Shown: positions 1 through 19,629 of the stretch, piece by piece
Numbering within the stretch: the stretch's first letter is position 1
How the letters are laid out: each line of letters starts with the position of its first letter
DNA from: an uncultured virus (IMG/VR IMGVR_UViG_3300025605_000006)
Taxonomy: Duplodnaviria > Heunggongvirae > Uroviricota > Caudoviricetes
DNA: 20,000 nt
Direction: 5' to 3' (one strand)
Virus record (IMG/VR): IMGVR_UViG_3300025605_000006
The notes under the pieces: generated by a model
Databases searched by the model: none
The model's input: only the letters and a program-made list of their open reading frames with translations
Told to the model about the DNA's origin: nothing
Made by a program: the position numbers and the translations under genes

Positions 1-26
1 CACTCAGGCGGAGGTACAGTTACAGC

Positions 27-173
27 ATGCTCACCGAAACCAACCAGAACACCGGCCACCCCCTCACGCTGGATAACGGGGCCACCGTGCTCGGGTATAC
101 CGAGTTCGGCCCCTACATGGGATTTTTCTCTTATGTAGATTTGGAGAACGCATACAAGGAGGAAATGCAATGA
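27..173 (+). CDS. hypothetical 48-aa protein (MLTETNQNTGHPLTLDNG...), probably leaderless first gene of an operon
   Basis: TACAGT -10 at 15-20, ATG 6 nt later; stop overlaps next start (ATGA 170-173). Confidence 0.6.
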   Translation: MLTETNQNTGHPLTLDNGATVLGYTEFGPYMGFFSYVDLENAYKEEMQ

Positions 174-382
174 CGACTCTTGGATACGAGATTCGTGGGA
201 AGGACGGGTTTTATGTCCGTCGCCAGATTTCATCCAATACTTTGCAGTTGGTTGTCGGCCACGATAATGTTGCTGGGGGATTGTGGGTCGAGTGGGCTGA
301 GAATGAGAATGCCCACGAAATTCACAATCACGCCCGACGAATGATTCGCCAGGCACGAAAGGAAGGATTCGCAGATGCTTGA
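170..382 (+). CDS. hypothetical protein, 70 aa
   Basis: SD AAGGAGG upstream, ATGA coupling to previous ORF, overlaps next start. Confidence 0.7.
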   Translation: MTTLGYEIRGKDGFYVRRQISSNTLQLVVGHDNVAGGLWVEWAENENAHEIHNHARRMIRQARKEGFADA

Positions 383-755
383 CCCAAGAATCCACTACAC
401 GCAATTTCCGTGGGACCGATTCAAAGAATGTGTCCGTGCTACGAACGCTGAACTTTGGAACGGTCCATTCAGTCCAGGTTACTGGACCGAGGTAGATCCT
501 CTGGAGAGTTATGAGTGGAGAGGGTTTCAGAAGGCTCTCGATGATATTCGAGAGATGCTGGAGGATTTGCCTTCCACGATTTACGTCGATGAGGACGACG
601 AAATCATTGGAGAACTGGACCCGTATGAGAATCCCAACAACTGGGAGGACGATCCCGAACGAGAGGGAGAGTACCTTTACTACGGTCCGTGGGATTACTC
701 TGCTGTAAACGTAGCAGAAATTCTGCTACCCCGAGAAGTTTACACCCTGATCTAA
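375..755 (+). CDS. acidic, aromatic-rich hypothetical protein, 126 aa
   Basis: SD-like AAGGAAGG upstream, operon packing, D/E/W/Y-rich sequence. Confidence 0.75.
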   Translation: MLDPRIHYTQFPWDRFKECVRATNAELWNGPFSPGYWTEVDPLESYEWRGFQKALDDIREMLEDLPSTIYVDEDDEIIGELDPYENPNNWEDDPEREGEYLYYGPWDYSAVNVAEILLPREVYTLI

Positions 756-765
756 GGAGCAAAGA

Positions 766-1107
766 ATGCAACGAATCAACATCTTCGGAGCCAAGGGAGG
801 GGTTGGTTGCACGACCCTCTCCGTAATTCTTGGATACGAAATCTCCAAGTCTGGCGAGAGCGTGTATCTGAATGGTGGGACATACCATACCGCCAACGTC
901 GAAATGAATCGGGACCTACAAGCCGTGGCAGGAATTCCTGCAATGGTGCAGGATGCGAAGATTTCGGACGGAGCTACTGTTTCGTACAGCCTTGAAATCC
1001 CCGATGATGCATGGCGCATCATTGATAGGGGAACGAACTACGCTGTCATCTTCGACACCCCGAGAGTCCGAGTGCAACGCAACCCGGAACCCTCAGACCT
1101 CAACTAG
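766..1107 (+). CDS. truncated ParA/MinD/CpaE-like P-loop protein with degenerate Walker A
   Basis: SD TAAGGAG; N-terminal INIFGAKGGVGCTTLS matches deviant Walker A KGGVGKT with K->C; only 113 aa. Confidence 0.6.
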   Translation: MQRINIFGAKGGVGCTTLSVILGYEISKSGESVYLNGGTYHTANVEMNRDLQAVAGIPAMVQDAKISDGATVSYSLEIPDDAWRIIDRGTNYAVIFDTPRVRVQRNPEPSDLN

Positions 1108-1312
1108 GGCGGGATGTGCTTGCCCTCATGCCTGACGGGCTCATGGTCTGCGTGGCTGAAACCCAAGACACTCAGGCTGCAATGGTCGCAGCTCAAGCGG
1201 TGGAGGACACACTGGGACGCATCTTGGGGGACCTGAGGTCGTCCGTCCCTCGTCCGTCCGCTTAGGACTGGACGTGGGACAACCCCCCCCAGAGGGGGCC
1301 ATCCCTGTCCTC

Positions 1313-1459
1313 TCAGTCCTCCGGGTCGAAGGGGAGGAGCTGAAGGTCCTCACCGACGACCTTGTTGGTGAAGATGAGGAGCTGTCCTTCGTAGTCCTCC
1401 AGCAGCTCTGCTTCTGGGAGGAGGCCAAGGATTGCGTTGCGGAGTTCGGTGTAGGTCAT
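1313..1459 (-). CDS. acidic 48-aa protein MTYTELRNAILGLLPEAELLEDYEGQLLIFTNKVVGEDLQLLPFDPED
   Basis: minus-strand TTGACA(1494-1489)-17-TATAGT(1471-1466), ATG 6 nt later. Confidence 0.75.
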   Translation of the reverse strand: MTYTELRNAILGLLPEAELLEDYEGQLLIFTNKVVGEDLQLLPFDPED

Positions 1460-1501
1460 GACTTCACTATATCTGAGCAGTTGCTGCTTGTCAAGCAGTT
1501 T

Positions 1502-1600
1502 CTACTCATCCTCGCAGTCGTGACCGTAGGCCCATTCTTCCGCGTCGGTCTCGTCGGTGAGGTCGAAGATTCGGTTGCATTCGGTACATGTTGCGTTCAT
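1502..1600 (-). CDS. 32-aa Zn-finger-like microprotein MNATCTECNRIFDLTDETDAEEWAYGHDCEDE
   Basis: minus TTGACA(1636-1631)-17-TATTGT; leaderless ATG; CxxC...HxC. Confidence 0.7.
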   Translation of the reverse strand: MNATCTECNRIFDLTDETDAEEWAYGHDCEDE

Positions 1601-2551: not shown

Positions 2552-2629
2552 GGGAGCGCCCCCCGGAAAGATGAAACTTTTCGGGGGGAACCCCTTGACA
2601 ATCGAACCCAACTGCCCTACCATAACCTC

Positions 2630-3070
2630 ATGGCACTACAGGAACCAGAGGCTATCGGTCGAACCGGCTTTCTGGATGAAAGTCCGTACATCGAGACAAA
2701 GTTCCAGGACTTCGGACGACAGGACTGGGAGTCCTGGTTCACAGAAGGGCAATGCCACGCCCTAGCCATCGCCATCCATGAAGTCACCGGGTGGCGAATC
2801 TGGGCGGTAGGCACTGACGACTCGTTCGACTGTGACCTATGGGCGGGCCACCTGTTCATCCAGACGCCTACAGGCCACGCCCTAGACATCACCGGCATCC
2901 TCTCCATGGATGAGATGACCCAACGCTGGGATGACTACATCCCTATCCCCACCTATTCCTTCCCTACCGACCCGGATGCCATCCTTGACTACTGGCCGGA
3001 ACCCCTCATGGGGGTAGCAGAAGCCATGGTGAACTACACGCTCGCGAACGCTGGGCTAGAAAGGGCTTGA
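2630..3070 (+). CDS. hypothetical protein with putative Cys-His-Asp (transglutaminase/papain-like) triad; paralog A
   Basis: TTGACA 2595-17-TACCAT, leaderless; FTEGQCHALAIAIHEVTGW...GHLF...ALDITG. Confidence 0.75.
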   Translation: MALQEPEAIGRTGFLDESPYIETKFQDFGRQDWESWFTEGQCHALAIAIHEVTGWRIWAVGTDDSFDCDLWAGHLFIQTPTGHALDITGILSMDEMTQRWDDYIPIPTYSFPTDPDAILDYWPEPLMGVAEAMVNYTLANAGLERA

Positions 3071-3071
3071 C

Positions 3072-3509
3072 ATGCCGACCCATATGACGTACCATGAGTT
3101 CATGTCAAACCCCACCCCGGAACTACTGGAAGCCTTCGGATGGTGGGGAGTAGACGACTGGGAAACCTACTTCACAGAGGGCGAATGCCACGCCCTAGCC
3201 ATCGCCATCCACGAGGCAACAGGATGGGATATCTGGGCAGTGGGCACGGGGCCGGACTTCAGTGTAGAGCACTGGGAGGGCCACGTTTTCATCGCTACCC
3301 CCGACCTGCTCGCACTAGACATCACCGGACTTTCCACGTTTGAGGATCAGGAGCTACTGTGGTCGAACCTGGAACACGCCCCCTTCCTTACCTCGGTGGG
3401 GGTACTGGAAGCAGTATGGGATCCCCCAGACCTGGAAACTGCTCGCAGCATGGTCGAATGGACTCTATCCAACGCTGGCCTGGAAGTCCCCGCCCAAGCC
3501 GGTCCGTAA
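3072..3509 (+). CDS. paralog B of preceding gene
   Basis: FTEGECHALAIAIHEATGW...GHVF...ALDITG...TLSNAGLE; starts 1 nt after paralog A. Confidence 0.75.
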   Translation: MPTHMTYHEFMSNPTPELLEAFGWWGVDDWETYFTEGECHALAIAIHEATGWDIWAVGTGPDFSVEHWEGHVFIATPDLLALDITGLSTFEDQELLWSNLEHAPFLTSVGVLEAVWDPPDLETARSMVEWTLSNAGLEVPAQAGP

Positions 3510-3619
3510 GACTCCAAAGGCTGGACGCTCGGACTTGCGGACTCTCGGACTCTCGGACTTGCGAGAAAAACTTCAAGAAACCCCTTGACAATCGCAGCAA
3601 TCCACGGTAAGGTACACAC

Positions 3620-4195
3620 ATGAACATCACGACGAGCCACACCACCACCATCACCTTGGAGCACGAGAAGGTCGGGAAGGTCATCCTGCCCTACGAGCCC
3701 ACCGACCCCGACGACGTTATCATCTCCGACGACGGCAACACGATCACCTACGCTACCTTCGACCCGTGGCAGTTCGACTACGAGTTTCCTGAGGGCGTCG
3801 ACTTCGTGCAGGGGAACCCCGGCTACATCCACTACTGCAACAACGTGCAGGAGTGGATCGACTCCATCCACGAGACCCCCCACATGAACATCTTCCCAGT
3901 GGGCGTCTACGAGCACGGGAACATCGAATACTCCCTGGCGGGGGAGTCGATGTTCTCCTCCGACCAGTTCGACTACTGTGTGGGAGCGGCCATCGCCATC
4001 CCCGGAGGCCCCGAGGGCTTCACCGACCCGGAGGGGGCGGCACGGGCCATCCTGAGGGAGTACACCGACTGGTGCAACGGGGAGACCTACTCGATCGTCA
4101 CCCTCACCCGCAACGGAGACACCTGGGAGAATGACACCGACAGGGGAGTCATCGGATACCGCAACGCCCTGGAGGAGGTGGGAGCGGGGGCCTAG
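3620..4195 (+). CDS. phage-type hypothetical protein, 191 aa
   Basis: TTGACA 3585-17-TAAGGT, leaderless; strong GC3 codon bias; VYEHG and EYTDWCNGETY motifs. Confidence 0.85.
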   Translation: MNITTSHTTTITLEHEKVGKVILPYEPTDPDDVIISDDGNTITYATFDPWQFDYEFPEGVDFVQGNPGYIHYCNNVQEWIDSIHETPHMNIFPVGVYEHGNIEYSLAGESMFSSDQFDYCVGAAIAIPGGPEGFTDPEGAARAILREYTDWCNGETYSIVTLTRNGDTWENDTDRGVIGYRNALEEVGAGA

Positions 4196-4307
4196 CCCCC
4201 TCCCCTTCCCCGAAGGTCCGGACTGACCCTGGATCTACTTACTTAGTCCCGTCGTCCGTCCCGTCCCCAGGACCTCCTGTTGTCCGGTCCTAGGGTCCTG
4301 TCATCCA

Positions 4308-4338
4308 TCGAACGTCCGTTCCTCGAACAGGTGTTCTG
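4308..4338. promoter_or_regulatory. tandem LexA/SOS-box-like sites
   Basis: TCGAAC-GTCC-GTTC and TCGAAC-AGGT-GTTC match Gram-positive GAAC-N4-GTTC. Confidence 0.55.
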
Positions 4339-4413: not shown

Positions 4414-4501
4414 CGGGTAGACCTTACCATGAGGCTACTTCGTGGCGCAATAGGCAAAATAACCTATTGCGTAGATGCTCTCCAGCTTGTATAGTGAAGC
4501 C

Positions 4502-4792
4502 ATGAACAACGCCTTGAGCAGCAACCATTTCAGCACAGACATCCAGACCGGGGATGCGATGGAGTGGCTGAGGATCACTCACCCGGCCGAGTACCGCGGC
4601 ATCCTTCAGGAGTTCCCCGAGTACGAAACCCGCGTCATGAGCGGGGCGTGGTGGGACACCGACGAGATGGGAGTTGACTTCGAGTGGGGATCCTGGCTTA
4701 CCGATGCCGTCGAGGCCACCGGGCTCGTGTTCTGGGAGGAGGGCGAACCCTTCGCTCTCACCCGAGACGAGGAGGGGTCCCCGACCTTCTAG
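4502..4792 (+). CDS. acidic Trp-rich hypothetical protein, 96 aa
   Basis: TTGCGT 4467-17-TATAGT 4490, ATG 4502 leaderless. Confidence 0.8.
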   Translation: MNNALSSNHFSTDIQTGDAMEWLRITHPAEYRGILQEFPEYETRVMSGAWWDTDEMGVDFEWGSWLTDAVEATGLVFWEEGEPFALTRDEEGSPTF

Positions 4793-4915
4793 TTGACAGG
4801 ACCGGACAAGTGTGCTAGGTGTCCGGTCCCCATAGGACCTCCTTGAGGCTAGGTTGTTTCACCTAATCTCAAGAAACCACTTGACACACCCGCCCGACGG
4901 AGGTAAGGTGAACAC

Positions 4916-5119
4916 GTGAGCACGACACGTCAAGCCGTCAACAACGCGATCCTCCGACTGGAGCACACCCTTGACGCCCTCGGGGTGCAGCTAGTGGAGT
5001 TTCACACAGAGGATGGTAACCAGTGGTCAGAGATCTACCACGCCCTCCGAGACATCACCTACCGGATCGAGAACCTCTCCAGCCGGATGCTCGATATGGA
5101 AGACGAGCAGCAGGAGTGA
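4916..5119 (+). CDS. helical hypothetical protein, 67 aa
   Basis: TTGACA 4881-17-TAAGGT, GTG 6 nt later. Confidence 0.75.
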   Translation: MSTTRQAVNNAILRLEHTLDALGVQLVEFHTEDGNQWSEIYHALRDITYRIENLSSRMLDMEDEQQE

Positions 5120-5189: not shown

Positions 5190-5392
5190 ATCAATATTAT
5201 ATTGAGCCCTCCCGCAAAAGTGGGGAGGGGACGGCATGGCGTTAGGTGTCATGCGCCTCTGAAGTGGCGAGAACTTCCCCTAGGGGTCTCAGTTTCTGTT
5301 CGCAGAACCTGAGACCCCTTGATCGAGGGTGGCGGTACCCTGGTGCAACTGTCGGGGGGTGGCAAGTTCGAGGCCCCCACCTGGCCGGAGGA
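5190..5392 (+). ncRNA. candidate structured ncRNA 1 (chain of hairpins)
   Basis: TTGACA 5157-17-TAATGT with no start codon at +1; consecutive hairpins including AGGGGTCTCAGTTTCTG-TTCG-CAGAACCTGAGACCCCT. Confidence 0.5.
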
Positions 5393-5442: not shown

Positions 5443-5628
5443 GTGACGGTGGACGCACACTCTTACCGGGTCCGTTTCCAGGACGGGAGAGAGGTGTCCT
5501 TCGGGACGGACTATCTGTCCGCTGTCCGGTTCGTTTGGACTGTGCGGGGCACACTGTCGGAGTTCGACGAGGACGGGTGCCTGGTCGCTTCCTACGACTA
5601 CAGTGTCAGTCCTCTCCCCCTAGGATGA
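5443..5628 (+). CDS. hypothetical protein, 61 aa
   Basis: GTG with GGAAGG upstream; protein-like sequence. Confidence 0.45.
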   Translation: MTVDAHSYRVRFQDGREVSFGTDYLSAVRFVWTVRGTLSEFDEDGCLVASYDYSVSPLPLG

Positions 5629-5758
5629 CGACCACCGGCTCGTCGGGGTCGGTATTGGGGATGGGGATGTTGCCTTCCAGTTCGGTCAGCATGGCGGTCA
5701 TCTCCGGGGTGATGTCGTCGCAGCGGTCGACGTGGTCGAAGTGGTCTGTGTTCTGCAT
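5606..5758 (-). CDS. acidic 50-aa protein (MQNTDHFDHVDRCDD...)
   Basis: minus TTGACA 5794-5789, TTCAAT -10, leaderless ATG 5758. Confidence 0.65.
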   Translation of the reverse strand: MQNTDHFDHVDRCDDITPEMTAMLTELEGNIPIPNTDPDEPVVVILGGED

Positions 5759-5856
5759 GTGTCTATTGAACATCATGGTGGGGGAGCGTGTCAAGTGGGG
5801 TTTTTAGGTGATATAACCCACTTGACAGGAGTTGCTCATCTAGTATCATGGGGCAC

Positions 5857-5994
5857 ATGAAGAAGCGAAGCCCCGCCCGCGAGACGCCCCGATCCACGGG
5901 CAACATGCTGCGTATCAATCAGCGTGCTCACACGTTCAAGGATCGGAAGAAGGACGCGAGCCGCAAGGCTTGCCGAGGAAAGGTGTACGCATGA
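5857..5994 (+). CDS. basic 45-aa protein MKKRSPARETPRSTGNMLRINQRAHTFKDRKKDASRKACRGKVYA
   Basis: TTGACA 5822/TATCAT 5844 then ATG; close paralog at 11546-11671. Confidence 0.8.
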   Translation: MKKRSPARETPRSTGNMLRINQRAHTFKDRKKDASRKACRGKVYA

Positions 5995-6155
5995 CCGCCA
6001 GCAACGAGCGAGGCAAGAAGATGGGCAACTCCCGCAGCCTGGGGCTCTGCTCCTACGGGTGCTGTCGAGGAACCCGCACGGGAAGCAAGGCCCGAACCCG
6101 CAAGATCCTCCGGGCCCGCGAGAAGCGAGCCTGGCAGAAGCAGGCCAACGCCTGA
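5991..6155 (+). CDS. basic Cys-containing 54-aa protein
   Basis: ATGA overlap with previous gene; CSYGCC and RAREKRAW. Confidence 0.7.
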   Translation: MTASNERGKKMGNSRSLGLCSYGCCRGTRTGSKARTRKILRAREKRAWQKQANA

Positions 6156-6241
6156 AGGAATCTCGAAAAACCCCTTGACAAGGGGTGACACCCTCCCCCA
6201 TACTGAACACACACCACAAAGCACTCAGGAGGTGCCACGAA

Positions 6242-6406
6242 ATGACCATCATGTGGGATGACCCCGAACTTGACGACATGGCCGACGAGATCGCCATGCT
6301 GGAAGCGGGCCTCGACATCGACCCCGACGACCTACTTGACATGGAGATGGAAGCCCGACTGCGCGAGCGGCCGCACGGCTTCACCGACGAAGGGGAGGGG
6401 TGGTGA
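6242..6406 (+). CDS. very acidic 54-aa protein (MTIMWDDPELDDMADE...)
   Basis: promoter TTGACA 6175, SD AGGAGG 6227-6232, ATG 6242. Confidence 0.75.
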   Translation: MTIMWDDPELDDMADEIAMLEAGLDIDPDDLLDMEMEARLRERPHGFTDEGEGW

Positions 6407-6456
6407 CACCCCAAACCACCTTGACAACCGACGCCCACCTGTGGCACAATGACCAC

Positions 6457-6477
6457 ATGAACAAGGAGACCAAGTGA
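6457..6477 (+). CDS. leaderless 6-aa uORF MNKETK coupled to next gene
   Basis: TTGACA 6421-18-CACAAT, ATG 6 nt later; stop overlaps GTG start (GTGA); contains AAGGAG. Confidence 0.5.
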   Translation: MNKETK

Positions 6478-6686
6478 GACACGCGAGAATCAGCATCGAC
6501 CTGACGGAAGCCTGGGAGTCCTGGGACGTGCTCATCACTGACCCGGACGCCCCGGAGGACGTCACCTCCGAGTGGATGGAAGCAAACCCCGACGGGTGGG
6601 AGCTGCACGACATCCGAGACAGCGGCAGCAACGGGTGGAGCGACCTCGAAGTGGACGACTACGATCCCCGAGAGGTGGCATCATGA
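6474..6686 (+). CDS. acidic Trp-rich protein, 70 aa
   Basis: SD AAGGAG, GTG start, D/E/W-rich. Confidence 0.7.
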   Translation: MRHARISIDLTEAWESWDVLITDPDAPEDVTSEWMEANPDGWELHDIRDSGSNGWSDLEVDDYDPREVAS

Positions 6687-6913
6687 GGCTGGAAGGATGG
6701 GAAGGTGGGCGACTTGGGGAAACCATCGCCCTAACCGTCCTGGCACTAATCCTCGTCGCACCGATCGTCCTGATTGTGGTCCTGGCACTCGCCACCACAG
6801 GATGCCCCTGGTACCTGTGGGCAGCCCTAGCCGTCCTACTGAACGTCCTTTGGCTCAAAACCTTCTTCAGGTTCGACATTGAGTGGCACGACAAAAACGA
6901 CGAAACCTCTTGA
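6683..6913 (+). CDS. small two-TM membrane protein, 76 aa
   Basis: ATGA overlap with previous stop; two long hydrophobic segments. Confidence 0.7.
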   Translation: MRLEGWEGGRLGETIALTVLALILVAPIVLIVVLALATTGCPWYLWAALAVLLNVLWLKTFFRFDIEWHDKNDETS

Positions 6914-6945
6914 CAGGCACCCTCATGTTGGCGTAACATGACCAC

Positions 6946-7464: not shown

Positions 7465-7472
7465 TTACATAC

Positions 7473-7631: not shown

Positions 7632-7815
7632 TCGAGAGCCCCTGCCTGCGGGTGGGGGCCACGGTCGTCCGTCCCACGACTAGGACATCCGTCCGGTCCT
7701 CAGGGACTTTTAGTCCGTCCCACGACTAGTTCGTCCCCCTGAAAATCTTGAAAAACTTCGAGAAACCCCTTGACTTCCCTTCCTCAGTGCCTTATATTGA
7801 ACTTGTAAGCAAGCA

Positions 7816-9872: not shown

Positions 9873-9938
9873 ACCCTAATGATGGGGCATGACGTTAGGA
9901 ATGTCAAGTAGAAATCCGAAGAAATCCGAAAAAGTTTG

Positions 9939-12438: not shown

Positions 12439-12732
12439 TCAGTCCTCCAGGGTGGCAGCCAAGGCAGCCAGCTTCAGCTTCCACGAGTCCCTCACTGCCC
12501 GCTCGGTGTCCTCGTCGGGAGTGACGTCGTCCAGTTCGCTGCGGAGGGATCCGACAAGGTGTCGGTCCCACTCCCCGGAGGTCATGGGTTCACCGTCCCA
12601 CCATCGGGGGGCTGAGGTCCCCTGCGAGAGGCCCCCTGTGGAGGCCACAGCGTACAGCATGGAAGCCTGTCCTCCGTGCCATCCGACCGCTAGGTCCCGT
12701 TCCTGTTCGGTTGCCGTGTAGATCGTTGCCAT
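12439..12732 (-). CDS. hypothetical protein, 97 aa (WHGGQASMLYAVASTG motif)
   Basis: minus TTGACA 12767-17-TATCTT, leaderless. Confidence 0.8.
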   Translation of the reverse strand: MATIYTATEQERDLAVGWHGGQASMLYAVASTGGLSQGTSAPRWWDGEPMTSGEWDRHLVGSLRSELDDVTPDEDTERAVRDSWKLKLAALAATLED

Positions 12733-12826
12733 ACGTGAAAGATACCGAACCCCGAGGGGGATGTCAAGTGAAAGAATCAGAAAAAACAGCTTGACACTCT
12801 AGCGGGGCGGGTGTTACTGTTACTGC

Positions 12827-12847
12827 ATGAGCAAGCGACACGTCTAA
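12827..12847 (+). CDS. leaderless minigene MSKRHV (or remnant of an ardC-like 5' end)
   Basis: TTGACA 12791-18-TACTGT, ATG 6 nt later, TAA after 6 codons. Confidence 0.4.
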   Translation: MSKRHV

Positions 12848-12949: not shown

Positions 12950-12972
12950 CTAAACCTCTAGTTGAGGTTGAC
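12950..12972. promoter_or_regulatory. MerR/FtsR-like palindrome (further copies at 14942, 15597, 15671, 15787, 18504 and in the terminal repeat)
   Basis: CTAAACCTC-TAGTT-GAGGTTGAC; consensus CTCAACCTC-N5-GAGGTTGAG. Confidence 0.6.
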
Positions 12973-13106
12973 GTGGGACGGGACGTCCGCTAGAGTGCTG
13001 GCGTCCTGGCGGTGTGGACTGTCCGGTCCGAGTGTTGTGTGTCTTGTCCTTGGGGACGGGGACCCTCGCCCTCGATGGGGGGGCTGAGGTTGACGGGACC
13101 CTCTTG

Positions 13107-13244
13107 TCAGAGGTAGTATTCGTCCTCTGGCGGGGGTTCCTCCAGGTCCTCGTCGTAGGGGTAGTCCATGGGGTCCCCTTCTGCGAGGTAGCGGTCCTCG
13201 TAGTAGGCTTCCAGCCAGTAGTCCGCTGCCATGTCCTCGTCCAT
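13107..13244 (-). CDS. extremely acidic Tyr-rich 45-aa protein MDEDMAADYWLEAYYEDRYLAEGDPMDYPYDEDLEEPPPEDEYYL
   Basis: directly follows upstream gene (alternative GTG 13250 overlaps its stop). Confidence 0.7.
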   Translation of the reverse strand: MDEDMAADYWLEAYYEDRYLAEGDPMDYPYDEDLEEPPPEDEYYL

Positions 13245-13246
13245 GG

Positions 13247-13396
13247 TCACCAGTCCTCCGCCCAAAAGTCGTCGCAGGTGCCCCATCCGATGGACTCGAA
13301 GGCTGATTCGGTCTCGAACATGAAGTCCAGGTCCGGCTCGGGGTCGTACTCCCCGAAGTCGGGCTCGTATCCGTCGGGCTCGTAGTCGTTGCTCAT
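13247..13396 (-). CDS. extremely acidic aromatic 49-aa protein (MSNDYEPDGYEPDFGEYD...)
   Basis: minus TTGACA 13432, leaderless ATG 13396; no K or R residues. Confidence 0.75.
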   Translation of the reverse strand: MSNDYEPDGYEPDFGEYDPEPDLDFMFETESAFESIGWGTCDDFWAEDW

Positions 13397-13503
13397 GTGT
13401 CTAGCTTGCCATAGGTGGGGGTAGCTTGTCAACCCCTAATGTTGGGTTATATCACCTAAAGATTCCACTTGACGCGACCCCCACCCCGTAGTACCTTCAA
13501 GTC

Positions 13504-13701
13504 ATGACACCGATGGAGTATGTCAAGTTCAAGAAGGCCTTCATGGGGATGGATCTCCCCGAGGAGACTCGGGGGCTCATCCTCGAACGCTCCGCCCAAC
13601 TGCGGGAGCGGGGCCACTCCCCAAGCTCCGCACTCAAGCGAGCCACGATGGAAAAGCGGGTGGTCGTCACCATCCCTCCCTACGATCCCTGGGAGGAGTG
13701 A
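13504..13701 (+). CDS. hypothetical protein, 65 aa
   Basis: TTGACG 13469-17-TACCTT, ATG 6 nt later. Confidence 0.75.
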   Translation: MTPMEYVKFKKAFMGMDLPEETRGLILERSAQLRERGHSPSSALKRATMEKRVVVTIPPYDPWEE

Positions 13702-13748
13702 TGGGCGGGGGCTTGACACCCCCACCCCCAACATGGTACAGTCCACTC

Positions 13749-13919
13749 ATGACAGAACGATGTCAGTGGGAAAACTGTCCCCGACCAGCAACCTGGGAAG
13801 TCCACTATGAGGACTACTACATCACCCTATGCGACAAGCACAAGGTCCGCAACGAGCGGGGGGACCAGTTCCTCCACGGACTGTCCCTAGGGACCGTCCT
13901 GGGGGCCATCTTTCGTTGA
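13749..13919 (+). CDS. Zn-finger microprotein, 56 aa
   Basis: TTGACA 13713-18-TACAGT; CQWENC...LCDKH. Confidence 0.75.
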   Translation: MTERCQWENCPRPATWEVHYEDYYITLCDKHKVRNERGDQFLHGLSLGTVLGAIFR

Positions 13920-13951
13920 CAAGGTAGAACTACCCGGCTAGACTAGGCCAC

Positions 13952-14116
13952 ATGAACTGTTTCGTGACCAACTGTAACGCTAAGGGTGTTACCCTTGACA
14001 ACCGGGGGCGAGTGTGCTGCAACGACTGCCGAGACTTTCTCGACACCCCTAGCACTCCCCACCGAACAATCCGAGAAAAATTCGGAAAACTGCTTGACGG
14101 GATCCCCTGGCGCTGA
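13952..14116 (+). CDS. Cys-rich microprotein, 54 aa (MNCFVTNC...CCNDC)
   Basis: TTGACA 13916-17-TAGACT, ATG 7 nt later. Confidence 0.65.
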   Translation: MNCFVTNCNAKGVTLDNRGRVCCNDCRDFLDTPSTPHRTIREKFGKLLDGIPWR

Positions 14117-14128
14117 TAAGGTACACAC

Positions 14129-14341
14129 ATGAACAACTTCACCACCAAGAACACCAACCGCAAGGCCCACCGGGACCACTCGCAGAAGGGTGGCACCGAG
14201 CGCCGCGAGGCACTCGACGCCCGAAACGGACGACGGCTCCGGGGCGGGGCGTTCGGGACGGAGGACGCCAAGGTGTTCAACCGCCTGGCAGTCGGGACAA
14301 CCGGCACCCCCCGACAGGAGAAGTCCGGAGAGGCAGCCTGA
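14129..14341 (+). CDS. basic hypothetical protein, 70 aa
   Basis: TTGACG 14094-17-TAAGGT, leaderless. Confidence 0.75.
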   Translation: MNNFTTKNTNRKAHRDHSQKGGTERREALDARNGRRLRGGAFGTEDAKVFNRLAVGTTGTPRQEKSGEAA

Positions 14342-14342: not shown

Positions 14343-14513
14343 ATGGACCCCAAGGAGGACCCAGCAGGGGACTCCAAGGGGTCCCTTGAGGACTGGCTTG
14401 AGAAAGCGGACCAGGCCATCCACGAGTCCCTCTCCAACATGAAGGACCCGGTGGGGGCCGAGGTCCGCTGGCGCAACGCAAGAAAAGCCAGAAAAACCTC
14501 GAAAACCCCTTGA
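14343..14513 (+). CDS. hypothetical protein, 56 aa (MDPKEDPAGD...)
   Basis: ATG 1 nt after previous stop, GGAGAGG upstream. Confidence 0.5.
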   Translation: MDPKEDPAGDSKGSLEDWLEKADQAIHESLSNMKDPVGAEVRWRNARKARKTSKTP

Positions 14514-14544
14514 CAAGGCTAGCGGGGTGAGGTAAGTTGAACAC

Positions 14545-14748
14545 ATGAACAACGACACCAACCCCTACGAGCTGGCAGCACGCAACCTCAAGGCGGGCAA
14601 GCTGGCAGCCTACCTCGCCCGCAACAACATGGCGGATGTCAACCCTGACTCCCTGCACTGGGATACCCTCGCCATCCTGGCAGGCACCAACCCCCCGAGC
14701 GAGGCCACCAAGCTGGTCGTCATGGAGATGCTCCGGGCAGGCAGCTGA
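14545..14748 (+). CDS. hypothetical protein, 67 aa
   Basis: TTGACA 14510-17-TAAGTT, leaderless. Confidence 0.8.
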   Translation: MNNDTNPYELAARNLKAGKLAAYLARNNMADVNPDSLHWDTLAILAGTNPPSEATKLVVMEMLRAGS

Positions 14749-15025
14749 CCCCGGACCGTAAGACCCCCCCAAGGGGGGGGGCAGGTCCCGTGTCCGTCCC
14801 AAGAAAAGTCCTTGACAGGCAGAACTGTCCCTGCCACAATAAGGACAGAGGGGGAGAGAGGGCAGTCCCAGCGGACTGTCCGGTCCCAGGGACTATTCGT
14901 CCCGTCCCGTCCGTAAAGGACTGCTCGTCCGCTATCGGACCCTCAACCTAAGGTTGAGGTTTAGAGTCGAGAAAGTTTCAGAAAACCCCTTGACAAGGTT
15001 GGCGGGGGGCTGTATCTTCCTACAC

Positions 15026-15379
15026 ATGGCACGACTCACCGCTACCACCTTCCCCGCAATCGACGCCCTTCTTCGTGGGGGCCGAGACAAGATCGGGCAT
15101 AACACGACCGCTCGGCACGAGGGGGGCGACATTCTCGTTACCCTTCACCGCTCCGACATCGTGCGCCTGACCCCCACCGGGGAGGTGTTCGTCAACCTGC
15201 ACGGGTGGCACACCATCACCACCCGCGACCGCTTGAACCAGTTCGTTGCGGCCAACTTCCGCAGCGACGGCAACAGGGGCACCATCATGACCCGTGTGGA
15301 GAGCGACGGCACCGTCAAGGTTCGCCCCATCGGGGCGGGCTGGCATCTGGTCGCCACCGCCACCGGCCCCCAGTTCTGA
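15026..15379 (+). CDS. phage-type hypothetical protein, 117 aa (GWHTITTRDRLN motif)
   Basis: TTGACA 14990-17-TATCTT, ATG 15026. Confidence 0.8.
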   Translation: MARLTATTFPAIDALLRGGRDKIGHNTTARHEGGDILVTLHRSDIVRLTPTGEVFVNLHGWHTITTRDRLNQFVAANFRSDGNRGTIMTRVESDGTVKVRPIGAGWHLVATATGPQF

Positions 15380-15473: not shown

Positions 15474-15856
15474 ACAAAGTCCGGTCCCAAGGGACAGGAC
15501 CTTGCAGTAAAGCAAGTTCTATAAATCCCTAAAAATGAACTCGAACCATTGACAGGACCAGGACATCCAGTCATCATGAGCCGTCCGCCACCCGGACCAA
15601 CCCTCAAGTAGAGGTTGAGACCGGACGGGACGTCCAGCTAGGGTCCAGCGTCCGGTCCCAGGACAAGGACCCAACCCTCAAGTAGAGGTTGAGAGTTGAA
15701 CCGGGACAGGTCCGCTCTTAGACTGTTTCCGTCCAAGGGACTCGGACGTCCACTCGGGTCCTGTAGTCCAAGAAGGGGACAGGACTCTCAACCTCAAGTA
15801 AAGGTTTAGAGTCCTGTCCGTCCCTGGACTAGGTCAAGCGGGGGGACTGAGGGGGC

Positions 15857-16207
15857 TCAAGGAACGATGAAGTCCTCCAGCCCAACCCTTGACACTCGAT
15901 AGGCACTGTTGAGAAGTCGGGACTTGAGGATGTAATCCGCCCCAACGGGGTTCGCAGTATGAGCGAAGATGCACCCGATGTCCAGAGGGTCCTCGAAAAA
16001 CACTTTCTCCTCCAAGAAGTCCACTACTGGACGTATCGTGTCCTCTCCTCCGAGGTCGTGATCCAAATAGAGGGCATCCCAGGACTTCTGGACTTCTGGA
16101 CTCTCGGACTGGAGGACTTGAAGGGCGTCCTTCGATGTGCGAACATGGTGGACGTCGTGGCCAGGCTTGACCAAAGTCCGCTCGTCGTCTATCACCAAGA
16201 TCCTCAT
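15857..16207 (-). CDS. cyclic-phosphate-processing receiver-like domain protein, 116 aa
   Basis: MRILVIDDER, LYLDHDLG, HTANPVG motifs; minus TTGACG 16243 promoter. Confidence 0.75.
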   Translation of the reverse strand: MRILVIDDERTLVKPGHDVHHVRTSKDALQVLQSESPEVQKSWDALYLDHDLGGEDTIRPVVDFLEEKVFFEDPLDIGCIFAHTANPVGADYILKSRLLNSAYRVSRVGLEDFIVP

Positions 16208-16882
16208 GGGTCCAACATACAGCGCCCAAGGGGTGTTCGTCAAGCAAAAAGGGCGTCCCCAGCCTCAAAAACGTTCAACTCTGCCCATTCCCCCGCCAAA
16301 ACGGACTGAAGTCAATGGAAATCACAGTGTCCGTCCGTGGATTCGAGCCTAAAAACACTTGAACGAGGGGTTTGTCAAGGGTAAAACTGTCCTCGACCGG
16401 CTCGAAACCCTTGAATCTTCAAGGACAGTCCGGGCAAAACCCTTGAAAAGGGTTGACAGAGGGGGGAGCGGGCGCTTATACTGCCCCCAGGAGCCCGGAA
16501 ACCCTAAAAACAGTCAACTTTCCTTGCGCTCCTCACTGAAAAGGGATACAAGGAGGCCTTGTTTGCAGTTTAGGGACTCGTTTTTGCTTCAAAAACCCTC
16601 AAAACCCTTGACTTTGTCTCTTTGATGAGCGATTATCGGACGAAACTTTACCGAAAACGGTAAAGTCCTTGACGCGAGAGGGGTGTCCAAGCTAGTTTGG
16701 ACTGTGTGGAGGGGTTTGGGGCCGGGATAGCGGTCCGGTCCTCGGGACTGGACTGTTCTGGGTGTCTTTATAGCGTCCAGATGTCCGGACCGTCGTCTCT
16801 ATAGTGATATTGTCCGTCCCTGTCCTTGGTCCGTCCGGGGGTCCTCTCGTCCAGGTGGGGGTTGTGGTGGGGTCCGCGGAGG

Positions 16883-16918
16883 ACCTGAGAGACCGAACAG
16901 GTGTTCGGTCTCCCAGGT
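16883..16918. terminator. hairpin after minus-strand gene with an embedded SOS box
   Basis: ACCTG-AGAGACCGAAC-AGGT-GTTCGGTCTCC-CAGGT. Confidence 0.5.
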
Positions 16919-16919
16919 G

Positions 16920-17078
16920 TCATAGATCGTGCTCCTCTGCGCATGACTGACAGGCGATCCCATGCTCGCCCGGATCATCCCAGGTTGCGTATGCGATCGT
17001 GTAGGTGATCATGTCATCCTCGTTGTGCTCCTCTCCGCACATCTCGCACTGACAGTAGATGATTCGCTCGGTTTCCAT
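16920..17078 (-). CDS. acidic Zn-finger microprotein, 52 aa
   Basis: minus TTGACT 17114, leaderless ATG 17078; CEMC...CQSC. Confidence 0.75.
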   Translation of the reverse strand: METERIIYCQCEMCGEEHNEDDMITYTIAYATWDDPGEHGIACQSCAEEHDL

Positions 17079-17139
17079 GACTACATCTAACCATGAGCGA
17101 CTGAGCGAAGTCAACCCCTAATGTCGGGATATCTTGCCT

Positions 17140-17187
17140 ACGAACAGGTGTTCGATTGTCGGGCGGGTCGGACGAACATTTGTTCGG
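17140..17187. promoter_or_regulatory. pair of LexA SOS-box-like sites
   Basis: ACGAAC-AGGT-GTTCGA and ACGAAC-ATTT-GTTCGG between divergent promoters. Confidence 0.65.
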
Positions 17188-17267
17188 TCCCAAGAGTCCT
17201 GAGCGTCCTCTCAGGGTCCTCACAGAAAGTCCTTGACAAGCGTCCTCCTATAGTCCAAGATAGGGAC

Positions 17268-17456
17268 ATGGCTTCCAACAAGTTCCCCACCTATTGCATC
17301 GACTGCGACCGACAGGTCGGAGCAGGACACGCCCCGCTCCTCAAGGCCAAGGGACGTTGGGTCGTTGCGTGTCGCAACCTCTCGACCATCCCCACCTACG
17401 GGTCGGACGACGGGTACGATGCGATCAAGGACCGCATGCTGGAGGGAGGATGGTGA
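17268..17456 (+). CDS. Cys-containing microprotein, 62 aa (MASNKFPTYCIDC...)
   Basis: TTGACA 17233-17-CAAGAT, ATG 6 nt later. Confidence 0.75.
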   Translation: MASNKFPTYCIDCDRQVGAGHAPLLKAKGRWVVACRNLSTIPTYGSDDGYDAIKDRMLEGGW

Positions 17457-17605
17457 TGGTGCTACGTCGGACAGTGTGTCGACTGACAGGACACTACTGG
17501 GAGGACAGCGAGGTCGGACTGGAGTGTCTCGACCGGACCGTCCCGGTCGTTTCCAAGTGTCGACGTTGCGGTACCACCCGGACCGACTTTCGTCCAAAGA
17601 AGTAG
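17456..17605 (+). CDS. DUF1660-like Zn-binding phage microprotein
   Basis: TGATG overlap, GGAGG upstream; CRLTGHYW...CRRCG. Confidence 0.65.
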   Translation: MVLRRTVCRLTGHYWEDSEVGLECLDRTVPVVSKCRRCGTTRTDFRPKK

Positions 17606-17680
17606 CGCAGGACCGAACCCCGAACAGTCCAGTCCTGCGTCCAGTCCTCAAGGACGAGGACCGATTAGGTCTGTCCTCCG

Positions 17681-18163
17681 CTAGGTGAAACATCCCACAA
17701 GAAAGTCCTTGCAATCGTGAAACGGGGGGTCCATAATAGGGACATGAACAACAACGACACCGTAACCCCGGAGCAGCTGGCCGAGGCCGAGGCCATCCTG
17801 GCAGCTTCCCATGGCCGAGTCGGGACCCTCCCCACCGAGGACCTTCTCCCCATCCAAGCTGAGGCCAAGCTCGTGCTTGCCAAGCTCCGCCATCCTTCCA
17901 TGACCCGCGAGCATGGCGAGCTTCTTCTCACCGGACTGGTGCACTCGATCATCTCCGCTGAGGTCCGCAACCTTCCCCAGGCCCGGACCGTGCGAGTCGG
18001 GTCGGGACGCCGCGGCTTGTTCGGGCGCTGAGAGACCGGGGAGGGACCTACCCTCCCCGTCCTCCGTCCCCAGAGACGAGGACCGACAGGATCGTCCTTC
18101 GTCACTAGGTGAAACATCCCACAAGAAAGTCCTTGCAATCGTGAAACGGGGGGTCCATAATAG
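17681..18163 (+). repeat. 59-bp identical direct repeat (17681-17739 and 18105-18163), each a complete promoter module
   Basis: CTAGGTGAAACATCCCACAAGAAAGTCCTTGCAATCGTGAAACGGGGGGTCCATAATAG occurs twice. Confidence 0.95.
17744..18031 (+). CDS. hypothetical protein, 95 aa
   Basis: TTGCAA 17709-17-CATAAT, leaderless. Confidence 0.75.
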   Translation: MNNNDTVTPEQLAEAEAILAASHGRVGTLPTEDLLPIQAEAKLVLAKLRHPSMTREHGELLLTGLVHSIISAEVRNLPQARTVRVGSGRRGLFGR

Positions 18164-18167
18164 ACAC

Positions 18168-18416
18168 ATGGAAACACCCACCACGAACCCACAGACCCTA
18201 GTCGCCATGGACTGGGATCGGACCGACCCGAGCATCCAAGGAGTCCTCGACTTTGTGGGCGGTGCGCTGCTCTCCCACGAGAGGACGGCAGTGAAGCACT
18301 GGAGGACGGGGGAGGACGTGCCGACACATCGGGTCACGTTCGACGCCAGGAAGGTCCGCAACACTGAGGTCCATGGCGTTGCGTTCAGGTCGGGCTTTGT
18401 GTCTCACATAGAGTGA
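18168..18416 (+). CDS. hypothetical protein, 82 aa
   Basis: TTGCAA 18133-17-CATAAT, leaderless. Confidence 0.75.
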   Translation: METPTTNPQTLVAMDWDRTDPSIQGVLDFVGGALLSHERTAVKHWRTGEDVPTHRVTFDARKVRNTEVHGVAFRSGFVSHIE

Positions 18417-18625
18417 GTGAACCTAGGACCGGAGACCACCTAGAGTGGTCCTATGTCCGAGTCCCCAGGACGCATCCACTGTCCGGTCCCTAAGGACAGG
18501 ACTCTCAACCTCAAGTAAAGGTTTAGGGTCCACCCCGGACGTCCTCGCAGCCCGCCACAGTCCCCGTCCAACTAGGTGAAACATTCTGCTTGACAGGACG
18601 GAGCGTCCCATGGTTAGATGTGTGC

Positions 18626-19375
18626 ATGGAAACGACAGCCACCCAGACAATCGACAAGGCCGAGGCTGGACCCCTCAAGTTCTGGGTCGTCGGTGGGGCC
18701 GTCCGTGACGGCATCCTCGGGACCACAGTCAAGGACGTGGACTTCGCTGTGGAAGCTCCGTCCTTCACTGCGATGGTCGAGGGACTGGAGGGACTTGGCT
18801 TCAAGATATTCCAAGTCCGCGAGTCCTTCCTGACAGTTCGGGCGGGGGTCCCCAACGGACACGCTCTCCGCAAGGTCACCAAGGACGCTGATTTTGTGAT
18901 GTGTCGTGCCGATGGTCCTTCGACCGATGGGCGACGACCGGACTTTGTCACCCCCGGTACCATCCTTGACGATCTGAAGCGTAGGGACTTCACTGTGAAC
19001 GCCATGGCCCAGGACCCGGACGGTGGGCTGCTGGACCCCCATGGGGGACTGAAGGATCTTCGATCAAGGACCCTGAGGTTCGTCGGGGACCCCATGGAAC
19101 GCATCACCGAGGACGGGCTGAGGGTCCTCCGAGGCTTTCGCTTTATGGTCACAAAGACCATGACCCCGGACCCCGCCACGGACGCCGCGCTGCGCTCTGA
19201 GGTTGCTGCCGAGATGCTGGCAACGATCCCAGTCGAAAGGGTCCGCGAGGAAGTCCTCAAGATGTTCGAGGGGGACCCCGTTGCTCCCATGACTCTCATA
19301 GCAGGACTTCCCTCAAGGACCCAGGACGCCATCTTTCGGGATGGGCTGAGGTTGACCCCTAGCCTCAAGCAGTGA
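18626..19375 (+). CDS. cca: class II tRNA nucleotidyltransferase (CCA-adding/poly(A) polymerase family), short 249-aa form
   Basis: VVGGAVRD...KDVDF, RRDFTVNAMA, DPHGG, EDGLRVLRGFRF, ERVREE; promoter TTGACA 18590. Confidence 0.9.
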   Translation: METTATQTIDKAEAGPLKFWVVGGAVRDGILGTTVKDVDFAVEAPSFTAMVEGLEGLGFKIFQVRESFLTVRAGVPNGHALRKVTKDADFVMCRADGPSTDGRRPDFVTPGTILDDLKRRDFTVNAMAQDPDGGLLDPHGGLKDLRSRTLRFVGDPMERITEDGLRVLRGFRFMVTKTMTPDPATDAALRSEVAAEMLATIPVERVREEVLKMFEGDPVAPMTLIAGLPSRTQDAIFRDGLRLTPSLKQ

Positions 19376-19437
19376 CCGCGAGAATAGGTCATATGACCTA
19401 GTTGACAGTCCGTCGGTTCTAGTGTTCAATGGTCTAC

Positions 19438-19629
19438 ATGGAACACCACATCGACCCCATCGACTCGGCCATTCTGAGGCTCCGCTTCAGTGGTCGTTCC
19501 CTCGACTCCACTGCCGAGGTCATGGAGTCGGACCCGCGACTGGTTCGACTTCGGGAGGCCAAGGCCATGAACGCTCTTCGGACCGCGGGTTTCTCCGATG
19601 GGGAGATTCGCGACCACTTCGGGCGCTGA
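19438..19629 (+). CDS. standalone sigma70 region-4-like HTH protein, 63 aa
   Basis: ILRLRF..RSLDSTAEVM....VRLREAKAMNALR resembles sigma region 4.2; TTGACA 19402-17-TTCAAT. Confidence 0.65.
   Translation: MEHHIDPIDSAILRLRFSGRSLDSTAEVMESDPRLVRLREAKAMNALRTAGFSDGEIRDHFGR

Follow-up and report, generated by a model that had tools for sequence, protein, structure and literature searches.

The DNA analysed here, a stretch of 20,000 nucleotides (nt) from the uncultured virus record IMGVR_UViG_3300025605_000006 that we refer to as the window, carries a dense array of small genes, each fused to a promoter sequence of the sigma-70 consensus type. A curated tally yields 34 leaderless units in which such a promoter directly adjoins an open reading frame (ORF), 23 on the plus and 11 on the minus strand. 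Two leadered units with their own promoter and ~10 consensus promoters without a gene were found as well, corresponding to a promoter density of ~1 per 430 bp (about 46 in 20 kb). The gene model comprises 42 genes with a median length of ~70 amino acids (aa); coding sequence makes up 57% of the window, a low share for phage DNA. The G+C content is ~60%, and 51% in the first kilobase. An initial annotation had proposed about 36 such cassettes starting at position 15, with nearly every gene leaderless and under its own promoter. The array does not begin at position 15, since positions 15–1300 are Shine-Dalgarno (SD)-led, have a G+C content of 51% and are replaced in variants. Exceptions to the general statement are the genes at 6242–6406, 6474–6686 and 13107–13244 (minus strand), which are leadered or SD-coupled, and the geneless promoters.

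A scan for sigma-70 promoters against shuffled sequence found 38 promoter-like sites compared to 4.3 ± 1.9 in 50 shuffles. The exact hexamer TTGACA occurs 43 times in the window (8.2 ± 2.7, maximum 19, in 300 dinucleotide shuffles), and an ATG lies exactly 35 or 36 nt downstream in 27 of the 43 cases, with none at the other offsets from 29 to 40. The composite pattern TTGACN-17/18-nAnnnT-6/7-[AG]TG was found 29 times, against 0.21 ± 0.46 (maximum 2) in 300 shuffles. All 28 positions of -35 boxes given in the initial annotation (17 plus, 11 minus) were recovered with at most one mismatch to TTGACA, an ATG or GTG 35–36 nt further on and an ORF of at least 30 aa. The cassette observation is confirmed as real and far beyond chance. 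For the tally 37 raw sites were curated: five were dropped, then 12284 (plus), and three units with weaker -35 boxes were added (start codons at 4502, 17744 and 18168). Four of the dropped sites (11878 and 17877, plus; 18999 and 15318, minus) are without a -10 box having A2 and T6 and overlap better genes, either within them or on the opposite strand. Site 16669 on the plus strand (TAGTTT, GTG, 32 aa), the fifth of the five, was dropped as a unit and kept as a doubtful orphan promoter; the ORF behind 12284 runs antisense to 12439–12732 and has a +1 insertion in variants.

The 34 units follow a narrow geometry. The -35 box is exactly TTGACA in 24 units; the spacer measures 17 bp in 24, 18 bp in nine and 16 bp in one; the -10 box reads TAnnnT in 23 and nAnnnT in 30; and from its end to the start codon there are 6 nt in 26 units and 7 nt in eight. 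The start codon is ATG in 33 units, and the sole GTG (4916) is an ATG in variant strains. The start codon is preceded by C in 32 of the 34 units and by T in two. A C stands before the -35 box in 25/32 and an A at positions -7 to -5 from this box in 19–21/32. Information content amounts to 2 bits in the -35 box and is near zero in the spacer and upstream. In two cases (3067 and 13916) the TTGACA box doubles as the TGA stop of the preceding gene, and the second codon shows a bias towards Asn (11 units), Ser (6), Ala (5) and Glu (5). With an ATG 6–7 nt past the -10 box in the 34 units there is no room for an SD sequence; a TANNNT-type -10 box at this fixed distance before the start codon and without SD, the feature looked for as that of leaderless genes, is present. 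At this distance from the -10 box, initiating RNA polymerase prefers a purine (+1) preceded by a pyrimidine (-1), and the transcript is therefore predicted to begin at the A of the AUG. The motifs, their geometry and their enrichment are established here, and promoter activity and start sites are predicted from them.

A codon-usage score trained on 11 longer genes was positive for 41/41 model genes, and only one further good ORF was found outside the model, the SD-coupled second cistron 13244–13107. Variant strains were compared using a listed subset of differences (40 of 550 single-nucleotide polymorphisms (SNPs) and 12 of 46 indels). In the gene 2630–3070, 11 of the 13 listed SNPs fall in the third codon position. 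The listed indels with lengths other than a multiple of three all lie outside coding sequences (11/11), and the sole indel within a coding sequence is 3 nt long. At the promoter with its -35 box at 4881, both boxes are unchanged in the variants while the spacer contains four SNPs and a 1-nt insertion. A coding signal of the small ORFs is thus observed, and the substitution patterns indicate that ORFs in register with promoters are conserved and under purifying selection.

The initial annotation had assigned an A-tract/CCC signature to the promoters in general. It applies to 13/34 units, in which A-tracts are located just upstream of the -35 box, and eight of them have another tract farther upstream by one turn of the helix. 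UP elements occupy this position in E. coli; the resemblance is one of sequence only. Another 14 units carry the palindrome TAGG-N8-CCYA instead, and seven show neither signature. The 14 genes are served by 11 palindrome sites, three of which are common to divergent pairs, and one extra site stands alone at 10098. Palindrome centres are found -43.5 to -45.5 from the ATG in six units, -53.5 to -55.5 in seven and -58.5 in one, and therefore lie on one helix face, upstream of the core promoter. In 8/14 palindrome units, compared to 3/20 of the others, the first two bases of the -10 box are not TA (Fisher p 0.023). An inverted repeat one or two helical turns upstream of the -35 box combined with a weak core promoter, looked for as a feature of activator promoters, is found here. 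The Pm promoter of phage Mu, activated by Mor, is said to be such an activator-dependent promoter with a dimer site near -43.5, and by analogy the palindrome class appears to have the layout of activator-dependent promoters. The A-tract class with its better -10 boxes is probably immediate and factor-independent, and the palindrome class with its poorer -10 boxes is probably switched by a dimeric DNA-binding protein.

A candidate for this predicted regulator, offered as a lead only, is the 63-aa product of 19438–19629, which is encoded behind a perfect palindrome site. The protein matches Pfam Sigma70_r4 across the whole model (E 0.065) and region 4 of the NCBIfam sigma factor ShbA (E 0.0098), and its nearest Atlas clusters are short sigma-like helix-turn-helix (HTH) proteins (score 0.94). 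In 5.8 billion proteins the sole match was a 100%-identical 66-aa protein, which represents the cluster of the 63-aa protein itself. An AF2 single-sequence model reached a pLDDT of 88; a Foldseek search against the PDB gave no match at E <= 0.001, and the highest Z in VIA-align was 5.2, for helical proteins that are unrelated.

Variation between strains was observed at the scale of single cassettes. One variant joint (3551–4308) removes exactly one cassette, from its A-tract through the GTCC repeat past its hairpin. Further segments that are skipped or replaced in variants are spacers or contain orphan promoters (5308–5363, 6025–6148, 15542–15718, 16409–16569, 16666–16760, 16826–16966 and 17570–17656), and the same applies to 113–1045 in the SD-led low-G+C block. 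The region is therefore hyperplastic, with at least one exchange being cassette-sized. Among the variant contigs the joints coincide with the borders of cassettes or spacers and lie in GGAC repeats, not in promoters; the parts that differ most from strain to strain are the orphan promoters. Duplications were also detected: a 66-nt head (repeat D18) occurs twice at 97% identity, further duplicated heads are repeats D3, I3 and I5, and paralogue pairs are encoded at 2630/3102 and 5857/11546. The claim of the initial annotation that the modules are self-contained, with a host-type promoter and a small leaderless gene, is supported by sequence.

We compared the array with known promoter-rich phage regions. 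The host-takeover module of phage SPO1, said to have been described by Stewart et al. in 1998, reportedly contains about two dozen small early genes and about a dozen strong host-sigma promoters in the terminal region that is injected first. Its genes are reportedly SD-led and partly polycistronic, and host shut-off functions are said to have been shown. The window, known by sequence alone, resembles it in clustering small genes under many strong host-sigma-type promoters and differs in its leaderless units. A search for the strict pattern TTGACA-17/18-TAnnnT-6/7-ATG, whose reversed control pattern was found 0 times in every genome, yielded 15 sites in the 20-kb window, 38 in the 192 kb of Microbacterium phage Big4, four in Streptomyces phage Daubenski (133 kb), three in Arthrobacter phage Atuin (194 kb), one in Mycobacterium phage Bxz1 (156 kb) and none in Bantam, JonJames, Corndog and the Synechococcus phages B23 and S-CBWM1. 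In Big4 the geometry is identical, including the C before the ATG, and in a 40-kb locus (L121) 16/16 plus-strand sites fall on annotated gene starts. However, the sites are four times sparser (0.2 per kb vs 0.75 per kb in the window), the promoters lie inside the 3′ ends of upstream genes in tight one-strand operons without spacer DNA, and neither the A-tract nor the palindrome class is present. Only the CCA enzyme is shared with the Big4 locus; the likeness is one of design and not of descent. Atuin, another large actinophage, encodes a homologue of the window's 117-aa protein and has at its left end a series of small genes, encoded on either strand and individually equipped with a promoter of the TTGACA-17-TAGACT type (12 units in 16 kb). 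In contrast to the window, these units are leadered, with a conserved 25–35-nt leader (ACCAACCAAC) and AGGAGG.

According to Arbiol et al. 2010 (PMC2839356), the PeSLs of T4-type phages are sigma-70-consensus promoters with an A/T-rich upstream part that stand before small ORFans in hypervariable regions, at ~50 per ~165-kb genome. The window shares with them the repeated sigma-70-consensus promoter, the A/T-rich stretch upstream of the -35 box (in the A-tract class, 13/34 units) and G/C-run hairpins between units, and it appears to share insertions, deletions and replacements between close strains at unit boundaries. PeSLs are described there as ending in an SD sequence and a start codon, whereas in the window the -10 box abuts the ATG. 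Furthermore, the hairpin does not appear to be integral to the repeated motif of the window, ~46 promoters occur in 20 kb compared to ~50 per genome, variant joints lie in GGAC-rich spacers and not in promoters, and the host is probably not an enterobacterium. For Cluster O mycobacteriophages, PMC4351075 gives 8–9 SigA-like promoters per 70-kb genome, some of them leaderless; the strict pattern is found 0 times in the Cluster O phage Corndog. An architecture with the -10 box next to the ORF is described in PMC12340547 for Deinococcus-Thermus and Actinobacteria. Leaderless promoters of host genomes have a weak -35 box, whereas in the window it is the best-conserved element. Resemblance to an integron or CALIN is not apparent, as no integrase is found among the 42 proteins and every cassette has its own promoter, judged from the repeat list with no attC model run. 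Our literature search, with supplements outside its scope, did not find a dense leaderless array in an actinophage, only the single leaderless promoters of Cluster O, and no paper remarking on the leaderless units of Big4 or the leadered units of Atuin. The array is a leaderless, unusually dense form of known promoter-rich early or hyperplastic phage regions and not a new kind.

The window likely represents hypervariable accessory DNA in the ~150-kb genome of an uncultured tailed phage that occurs in activated sludge; by analogy the predicted timing of this region is most likely early. The DNA was found in runs from 13 activated-sludge or wastewater studies and one freshwater run. Of ten window proteins that were looked up, nine have exact copies on contigs that reach 151,408 bp; their clusters at 90% identity include members on contigs of 148.5–151 kb, and these proteins are found on six contigs of 148–151 kb. 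A near-DNA search of 50,697 phage records found no close relative. Metagenome contigs recovered the same phage (L122 at 99.99%, L123 and L127) together with short mosaic pieces (L124–L126, L128 and L129), which may be recombinants or assembly chimeras. Searches of viral contigs were uninformative: the CCA enzyme gave no match, the 191-aa protein matched a single unrelated locus (L001), the 15-mer GAAAACCCCTTGACA occurred in at least 119 stretches, with none of those listed related by tblastn, and the palindrome plus -35 pattern in 50 loci, none of them related. Only 4/42 proteins reach curated family cut-offs, namely an ArdC-N + zincin peptidase protein, a PNKP-type phosphatase, a cREC domain protein and a CCA-adding tRNA nucleotidyltransferase; such a match is absent in the other 38. 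The first of these families is described as anti-restriction, and the descriptions of the remaining three suggest RNA or tRNA repair, so that the array content appears to be accessory and partly concerned with counter-defence or RNA repair. The modular host-takeover role envisaged in the initial annotation is conjectural, being suggested by only these four annotated genes of 42. A PADLOC search of the window returned nothing relevant.

The host is, on slender evidence, probably an actinobacterium. Relatives of the cREC domain are Streptomyces and Gordonia phages in 15/15 records, the 117-aa protein (14990–15379) has a homologue in Arthrobacter phage Atuin and others in the terminal repeats of Caulobacter phages, and a leaderless design in itself suggests a host in which leaderless genes are tolerated. 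Besides Actinobacteria, the architecture with the -10 box next to the ORF is noted for the phylum Deinococcus-Thermus (PMC12340547). One scan of genome contigs for the host gave no match. A second yielded a phage-like contig with 49% G+C that is binned as Rhodocyclaceae and has only 250 nt in common with contig L125, and is uninformative about the host. The methyltransferase of L125 is nearest to Gordonia phages (27/31 records, 68–70% identity), and a 126-nt identical segment is all that links this contig to the window.

Taken together, the window is probably an array of host-sigma-type promoters, each fused to a small leaderless gene, in a hypervariable phage region. In this model the 34 small genes would each be transcribed from their own promoter of the host housekeeping-sigma type, as predicted from the boxes. 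RNA polymerase would start at the A of the ATG, and the resulting mRNAs, without leader or SD sequence, would be read by ribosomes binding the 5′-terminal AUG. One promoter per microgene is expected because a leaderless gene can be read only where a transcript begins with it. A G+C-rich hairpin closes many of the units, each of which would thus constitute an autonomous promoter–ORF–hairpin module with ~45 bp of control DNA, which could be inserted, lost or decay singly and without polar effects. Such autonomy agrees with the variant that differs by one whole cassette, with the head duplication D18, with the paralogues and with the dead cassettes. The A-tract class would fire with unmodified host polymerase, whereas the palindrome class would need a phage protein. 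A more elaborate version treats the array as the leaderless counterpart of PeSLs: the modules would sit in a transcribed GGAC/GTCC-rich scaffold that serves cassette exchange, the 63-aa HTH protein would switch the TAGG-N8-CCTA class (at -44.5/-54.5), and the orphan promoters would make structured non-coding RNAs or act as decoys instead of being simple remnants. We regard this version as doubtful.

Several other explanations were weighed. The initial annotation had raised the idea of an RNA polymerase sink, in which ~45 promoters, especially the ~10 geneless ones, would titrate the host sigma-A holoenzyme and the genes would be secondary. Promoters without ORF include two of the five best matches (11/12; 10439 and 16453), 43% of the window is non-coding and the -35 box is nearly invariant, all of which would suit a sink. 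However, tens of sites per genome are few compared with the polymerase pool of a cell, each of the 34 promoters is precisely aligned with an ORF that is conserved and under purifying selection, and leaderless translation already accounts for one promoter per gene. The orphan promoters, moreover, vary most between strains and at least two of them resemble decayed cassettes. A sink has no support in the present data and is considered unlikely, and the same degree of doubt applies to a phage-directed polymerase, either a phage sigma factor or a modified host enzyme, that would read the promoters as a middle or late class. The housekeeping type of TTGACA-17-TAnnnT speaks against it, as do the same boxes before genes in Big4 and Atuin, phages of two host genera, and the absence of a full sigma factor from the window; the loose -10 box (TAnnnT in 23/34) next to a nearly invariant -35 box, the small sigma-region-4-like protein encoded in the array and the factor dependence suggested by the palindrome class would fit it.

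A non-viral origin is less probable still; the region would then belong to a large plasmid or integrative element of an actinobacterium, as an accessory island in which the small genes merely happen to lack leaders. ArdC-type proteins are, by their Pfam name, typical of conjugative plasmids, a ParA-like N-terminus is encoded at 766–1107, and the window contains no virion gene; yet 7/39 window proteins have PHROG matches, the cREC relatives are solely phages, the CCA enzyme and the 117-aa protein are related to those of large phages, the latter in terminal repeats, and uniform contigs of 148–151 kb recur across many samples. Least probable are copies of a small mobile or recombination element without promoter function, in which the ATG spacing would be inherited by duplication. 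Some heads are clearly duplicated, and promoter-like boxes also occur inside dispersed hairpin repeats (D6), but the units share little sequence beyond the functional boxes, and these boxes are fixed in variants while the spacer changes. Information near zero in spacer and upstream, compared to 2 bits in the -35 box, argues for selection on function and not for recent copying.

A number of observations weigh against or limit the case for the leaderless phage array, its regulation or its proposed host. Nearly unstructured 5′ ends fit the leaderless reading: the first 36 nt of the units are A+C-rich (A 32%, C 36%, G 21%, T 11%) and fold with -2.9 vs -8.6 kcal/mol within the same genes (32/34 less structured, p 1.6e-9), but low 5′ structure is also general at leadered starts and hence not leaderless-specific. 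In two RNA libraries (X17 and X18), 30 and 23 contigs with a depth of 2–7 cross predicted promoters (e.g. 3277–3835 and 6446–7012); these may result from DNA carry-over and count neither for nor against promoter activity. The bare palindrome pattern is only ~2-fold enriched (22 vs 10.8 ± 3.1), and the case for this class rests on its positions. The variant evidence is partial, given the subset of differences that it covers. With regard to the host, the CCA enzyme is closest to cyanophage enzymes (53% identity); phages of Caulobacter are indicated by ArdC and by one cassette protein. Phage hallmark genes are absent from the window, and because of this the labels ‘phage’ and ‘early’ rest on gene content and analogy.

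If the leaderless array is read correctly, the promoter in the window is predicted to fix both start site and start codon with single-base precision. Gene prediction programs that rely on ribosome-binding sites will overlook such genes or place them wrongly. No autonomous expression unit can be smaller than a leaderless gene, with its ~45 bp of control DNA. Small modules of this kind may explain the fast-turning store of accessory genes in large phages of hosts that are permissive for leaderless translation, and the decayed and truncated cassettes of the window show turnover. From the two upstream classes follows an early programme in two steps that can be tested, and ~34 natural, compact and graded promoter–start modules are offered for high-G+C Gram-positive hosts. 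The general phenomenon is carried by the culturable phages Big4 (leaderless) and Atuin (leadered).

The individual units, leaderless unless described otherwise, are arranged as follows. On the minus strand, 1313–1494 (48 aa, TTGACA-17-TATAGT-6-ATG(1459), codon score 0.75) and 1502–1636 (32 aa, TTGACA-17-TATTGT-7-ATG(1600)) precede the plus-strand unit 1662–2551, which encodes the anti-restriction-like ArdC-N + zincin peptidase protein of 284 aa behind an A-tract promoter (TTGACA-17-TATAGT-6-ATG(1697)). The plus-strand units 2595–3070 (146 aa, hairpin adjoining the -35 box) and 3067–3509 (135 aa, TTGACA including the upstream TGA stop) encode paralogues and are followed by 3585–4195 (plus; a 191-aa ORFan, whose cassette 3552–4307 is skipped or replaced in a variant), 4451–4792 (plus; 96 aa, palindrome 4451–4466, weak -35 box TTGCGT and TATAGT-6-ATG(4502)) and 4850–5119 (plus; 67 aa, palindrome 4850–4865, GTG(4916), ATG in variants). 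The palindrome at 5805–5820 (TAGGTGATATAACCCA) is common to the divergent units 5606–5794 (minus; 50 aa) and 5805–5994 (plus; a basic peptide of 45 aa, paralogue of 11546–11671). The leadered unit 6175–6406 (plus; 54 aa) has TTGACA-18-CATACT and a 34-nt leader with AGGAGG before its ATG at 6242. At 6421–6686 (plus), a promoter precedes a leaderless mini-ORF of six codons (MNKETK and stop, 6421–6476) that carries AAGGAG and whose stop overlaps the GTG (6474) of a 70-aa gene, a possible device for coupling leaderless to SD-led translation. Further on, the plus-strand units are 6910–7464 (a PNKP-type HAD phosphatase of 172 aa), 7437–7631 (52 aa, promoter within the 3′ end of the preceding gene) and 8137–8634 (153 aa, zinc-ribbon-like).

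The unit 8845–9214 (minus; 105 aa) has its palindrome (9199–9214) adjoining the -35 box, and 9328–9492 (plus; 42-aa basic peptide) has phased GAAGAAATCC repeats upstream; 9672–9907 (minus) encodes an acidic Cys-rich protein of 66 aa and 11135–11478 (minus) one of 102 aa. A palindrome common to divergent units (11709–11724) stands between 11546–11707 (minus; 41-aa basic peptide) and 11709–12038 (plus; 88 aa). Very basic peptides of 41–45 aa are thus encoded at 5857–5994, 11546–11671 (minus) and 9364–9492; two of them are paralogous (...NQRAHTFKDRKK..RKACRGKV), lie behind palindrome-class promoters and give weak DUF7230 matches (E 0.01–0.04). Beyond 12439–12767 (minus; 97 aa), the palindrome 13443–13458 is again common to divergent units, 13107–13432 (minus; a 49-aa gene with the SD-coupled second cistron 13244–13107 of 45 aa) and 13443–13701 (plus; 65 aa). 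On the plus strand follow 13713–13919 (56 aa), 13916–14116 (54 aa, TTGACA including the upstream TGA stop), 14094–14341 (70 aa, basic), 14510–14748 (67 aa) and 14990–15379 (117 aa, homologues in large-phage terminal repeats). The cREC receiver domain protein (116 aa) is encoded at 15857–16243 on the minus strand, as is 16920–17140 (52 aa, palindrome 17125–17140). The remaining units are on the plus strand: 17233–17456 (62 aa), 17682–18031 (95 aa, palindrome, TTGCAA-17-CATAAT-6-ATG(17744)), whose 66-nt head is repeated at 18105, 18106–18416 with the second copy of this head (82 aa, ATG 18168), 18573–19375 (palindrome; CCA-adding tRNA nucleotidyltransferase of 249 aa) and 19385–19629 (perfect palindrome TAGGTCATATGACCTA; 63 aa, weakly sigma-region-4-like HTH).

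Hairpins with z <= -2 follow 16/41 genes and are mostly G/C runs without a U tract; a hairpin overlaps or adjoins the -35 box at only ~3 promoters (1662, 2595 and 6175). GGAC/GTCC occurs 524 times vs 233 expected by base composition, is 2.6-fold denser in non-coding than in coding DNA and is equally frequent on both strands. Part of these motifs form 8-bp periodic runs (e.g. 3523–3569, 8027–8073 and 4246–4306), where variant joints fall. Candidate causes of the excess are a protein site, a modification target or a recombination scaffold. Hairpin and palindrome repeats are likewise scattered through the spacers. At 9956–10080 a 38-nt unit is tandemly repeated in three perfect copies, and variants have one copy fewer (joint 10040–10079). 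At 19722–20000, 78-nt tandem repeats (at least 3.5 copies, 98% identity) contain two palindromes (CCTCAAGTTGAGG-like and GGGACGTCCC). Dispersed copies lie at 12952–12999, 14932–14969, 15599–15814 and 18494–18531, and the near-identical contig L122 ends inside these repeats, which could be iterons, a partition or packaging site, or an assembly breakpoint.

All orphan promoters listed here are on the plus strand. TTGACT-17-TATATT at 7770–8022 is followed by a structured RNA candidate of ~215 nt, whose predicted transcript (7803–8022, fold z -3.1) ends at a terminator with an 11-bp stem (7986–8012) and contains a T-arm-like GCAGTTCGATTCTGC. Rfam gave nothing below E 0.38 on the window; ARAGORN found no tRNA in the window by default and 45 low-score calls at a lax threshold, none at 7800–7890. 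The region 10439–10960 has promoters at 10439 (11/12 match) and 10894, and its predicted transcript 10474–10960 (z -4.6) contains a 30-bp duplex (10576–10607 / 10860–10891). At 10439 the ATG position is ATA and the usual gaagccATGaacaacgcc reads gaagatATCaagaacgcc, so that this site looks like a decayed cassette. The same appearance of decay, with truncation, is seen at 12791–12847, where a promoter and a six-codon mini-ORF (MSKRHV and stop) repeat the 5′ end of the ArdC-like cassette in truncated form. Between 12057 and 12319 lie the promoters 12057 and 12284, the latter antisense to 12439–12732 with the +1 insertion behind 12427. TTGACA-17-CACAAT at 14812–14989 precedes a spacer with a hairpin repeat, and the promoter and repeat-rich spacer at 15549–15850 vary between strains. 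This also holds for 16453–16770, in which a promoter (11/12 match) is followed by a predicted structured transcript (16488–16770, z -3.5) and 16608 and 16669 are promoter-like.

Within the unit 11135–11478, the 126-nt segment 11141–11266 codes for a CxxC...CxxC tail and is 99–100% identical to L124, L125 and L128, contigs of 54–67.5% G+C that are otherwise unrelated to the window (100% identity to those of 67.5% G+C). This identity reflects either a very recent exchange between co-occurring phages or assembly chimeras. L125 carries ORFs that, judged by eye, are TnpB-, HNH- and virion-like. Outside the array, the SD-led block at 1–1300 (plus; 51% G+C, 113–1045 replaced in variants) comprises four genes, including the one with the ParA-like N-terminus. 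Its 126-aa protein (375–755) belongs to a 47-member cluster with many short contigs, including NCBI records, and is far more widespread than the remaining window.

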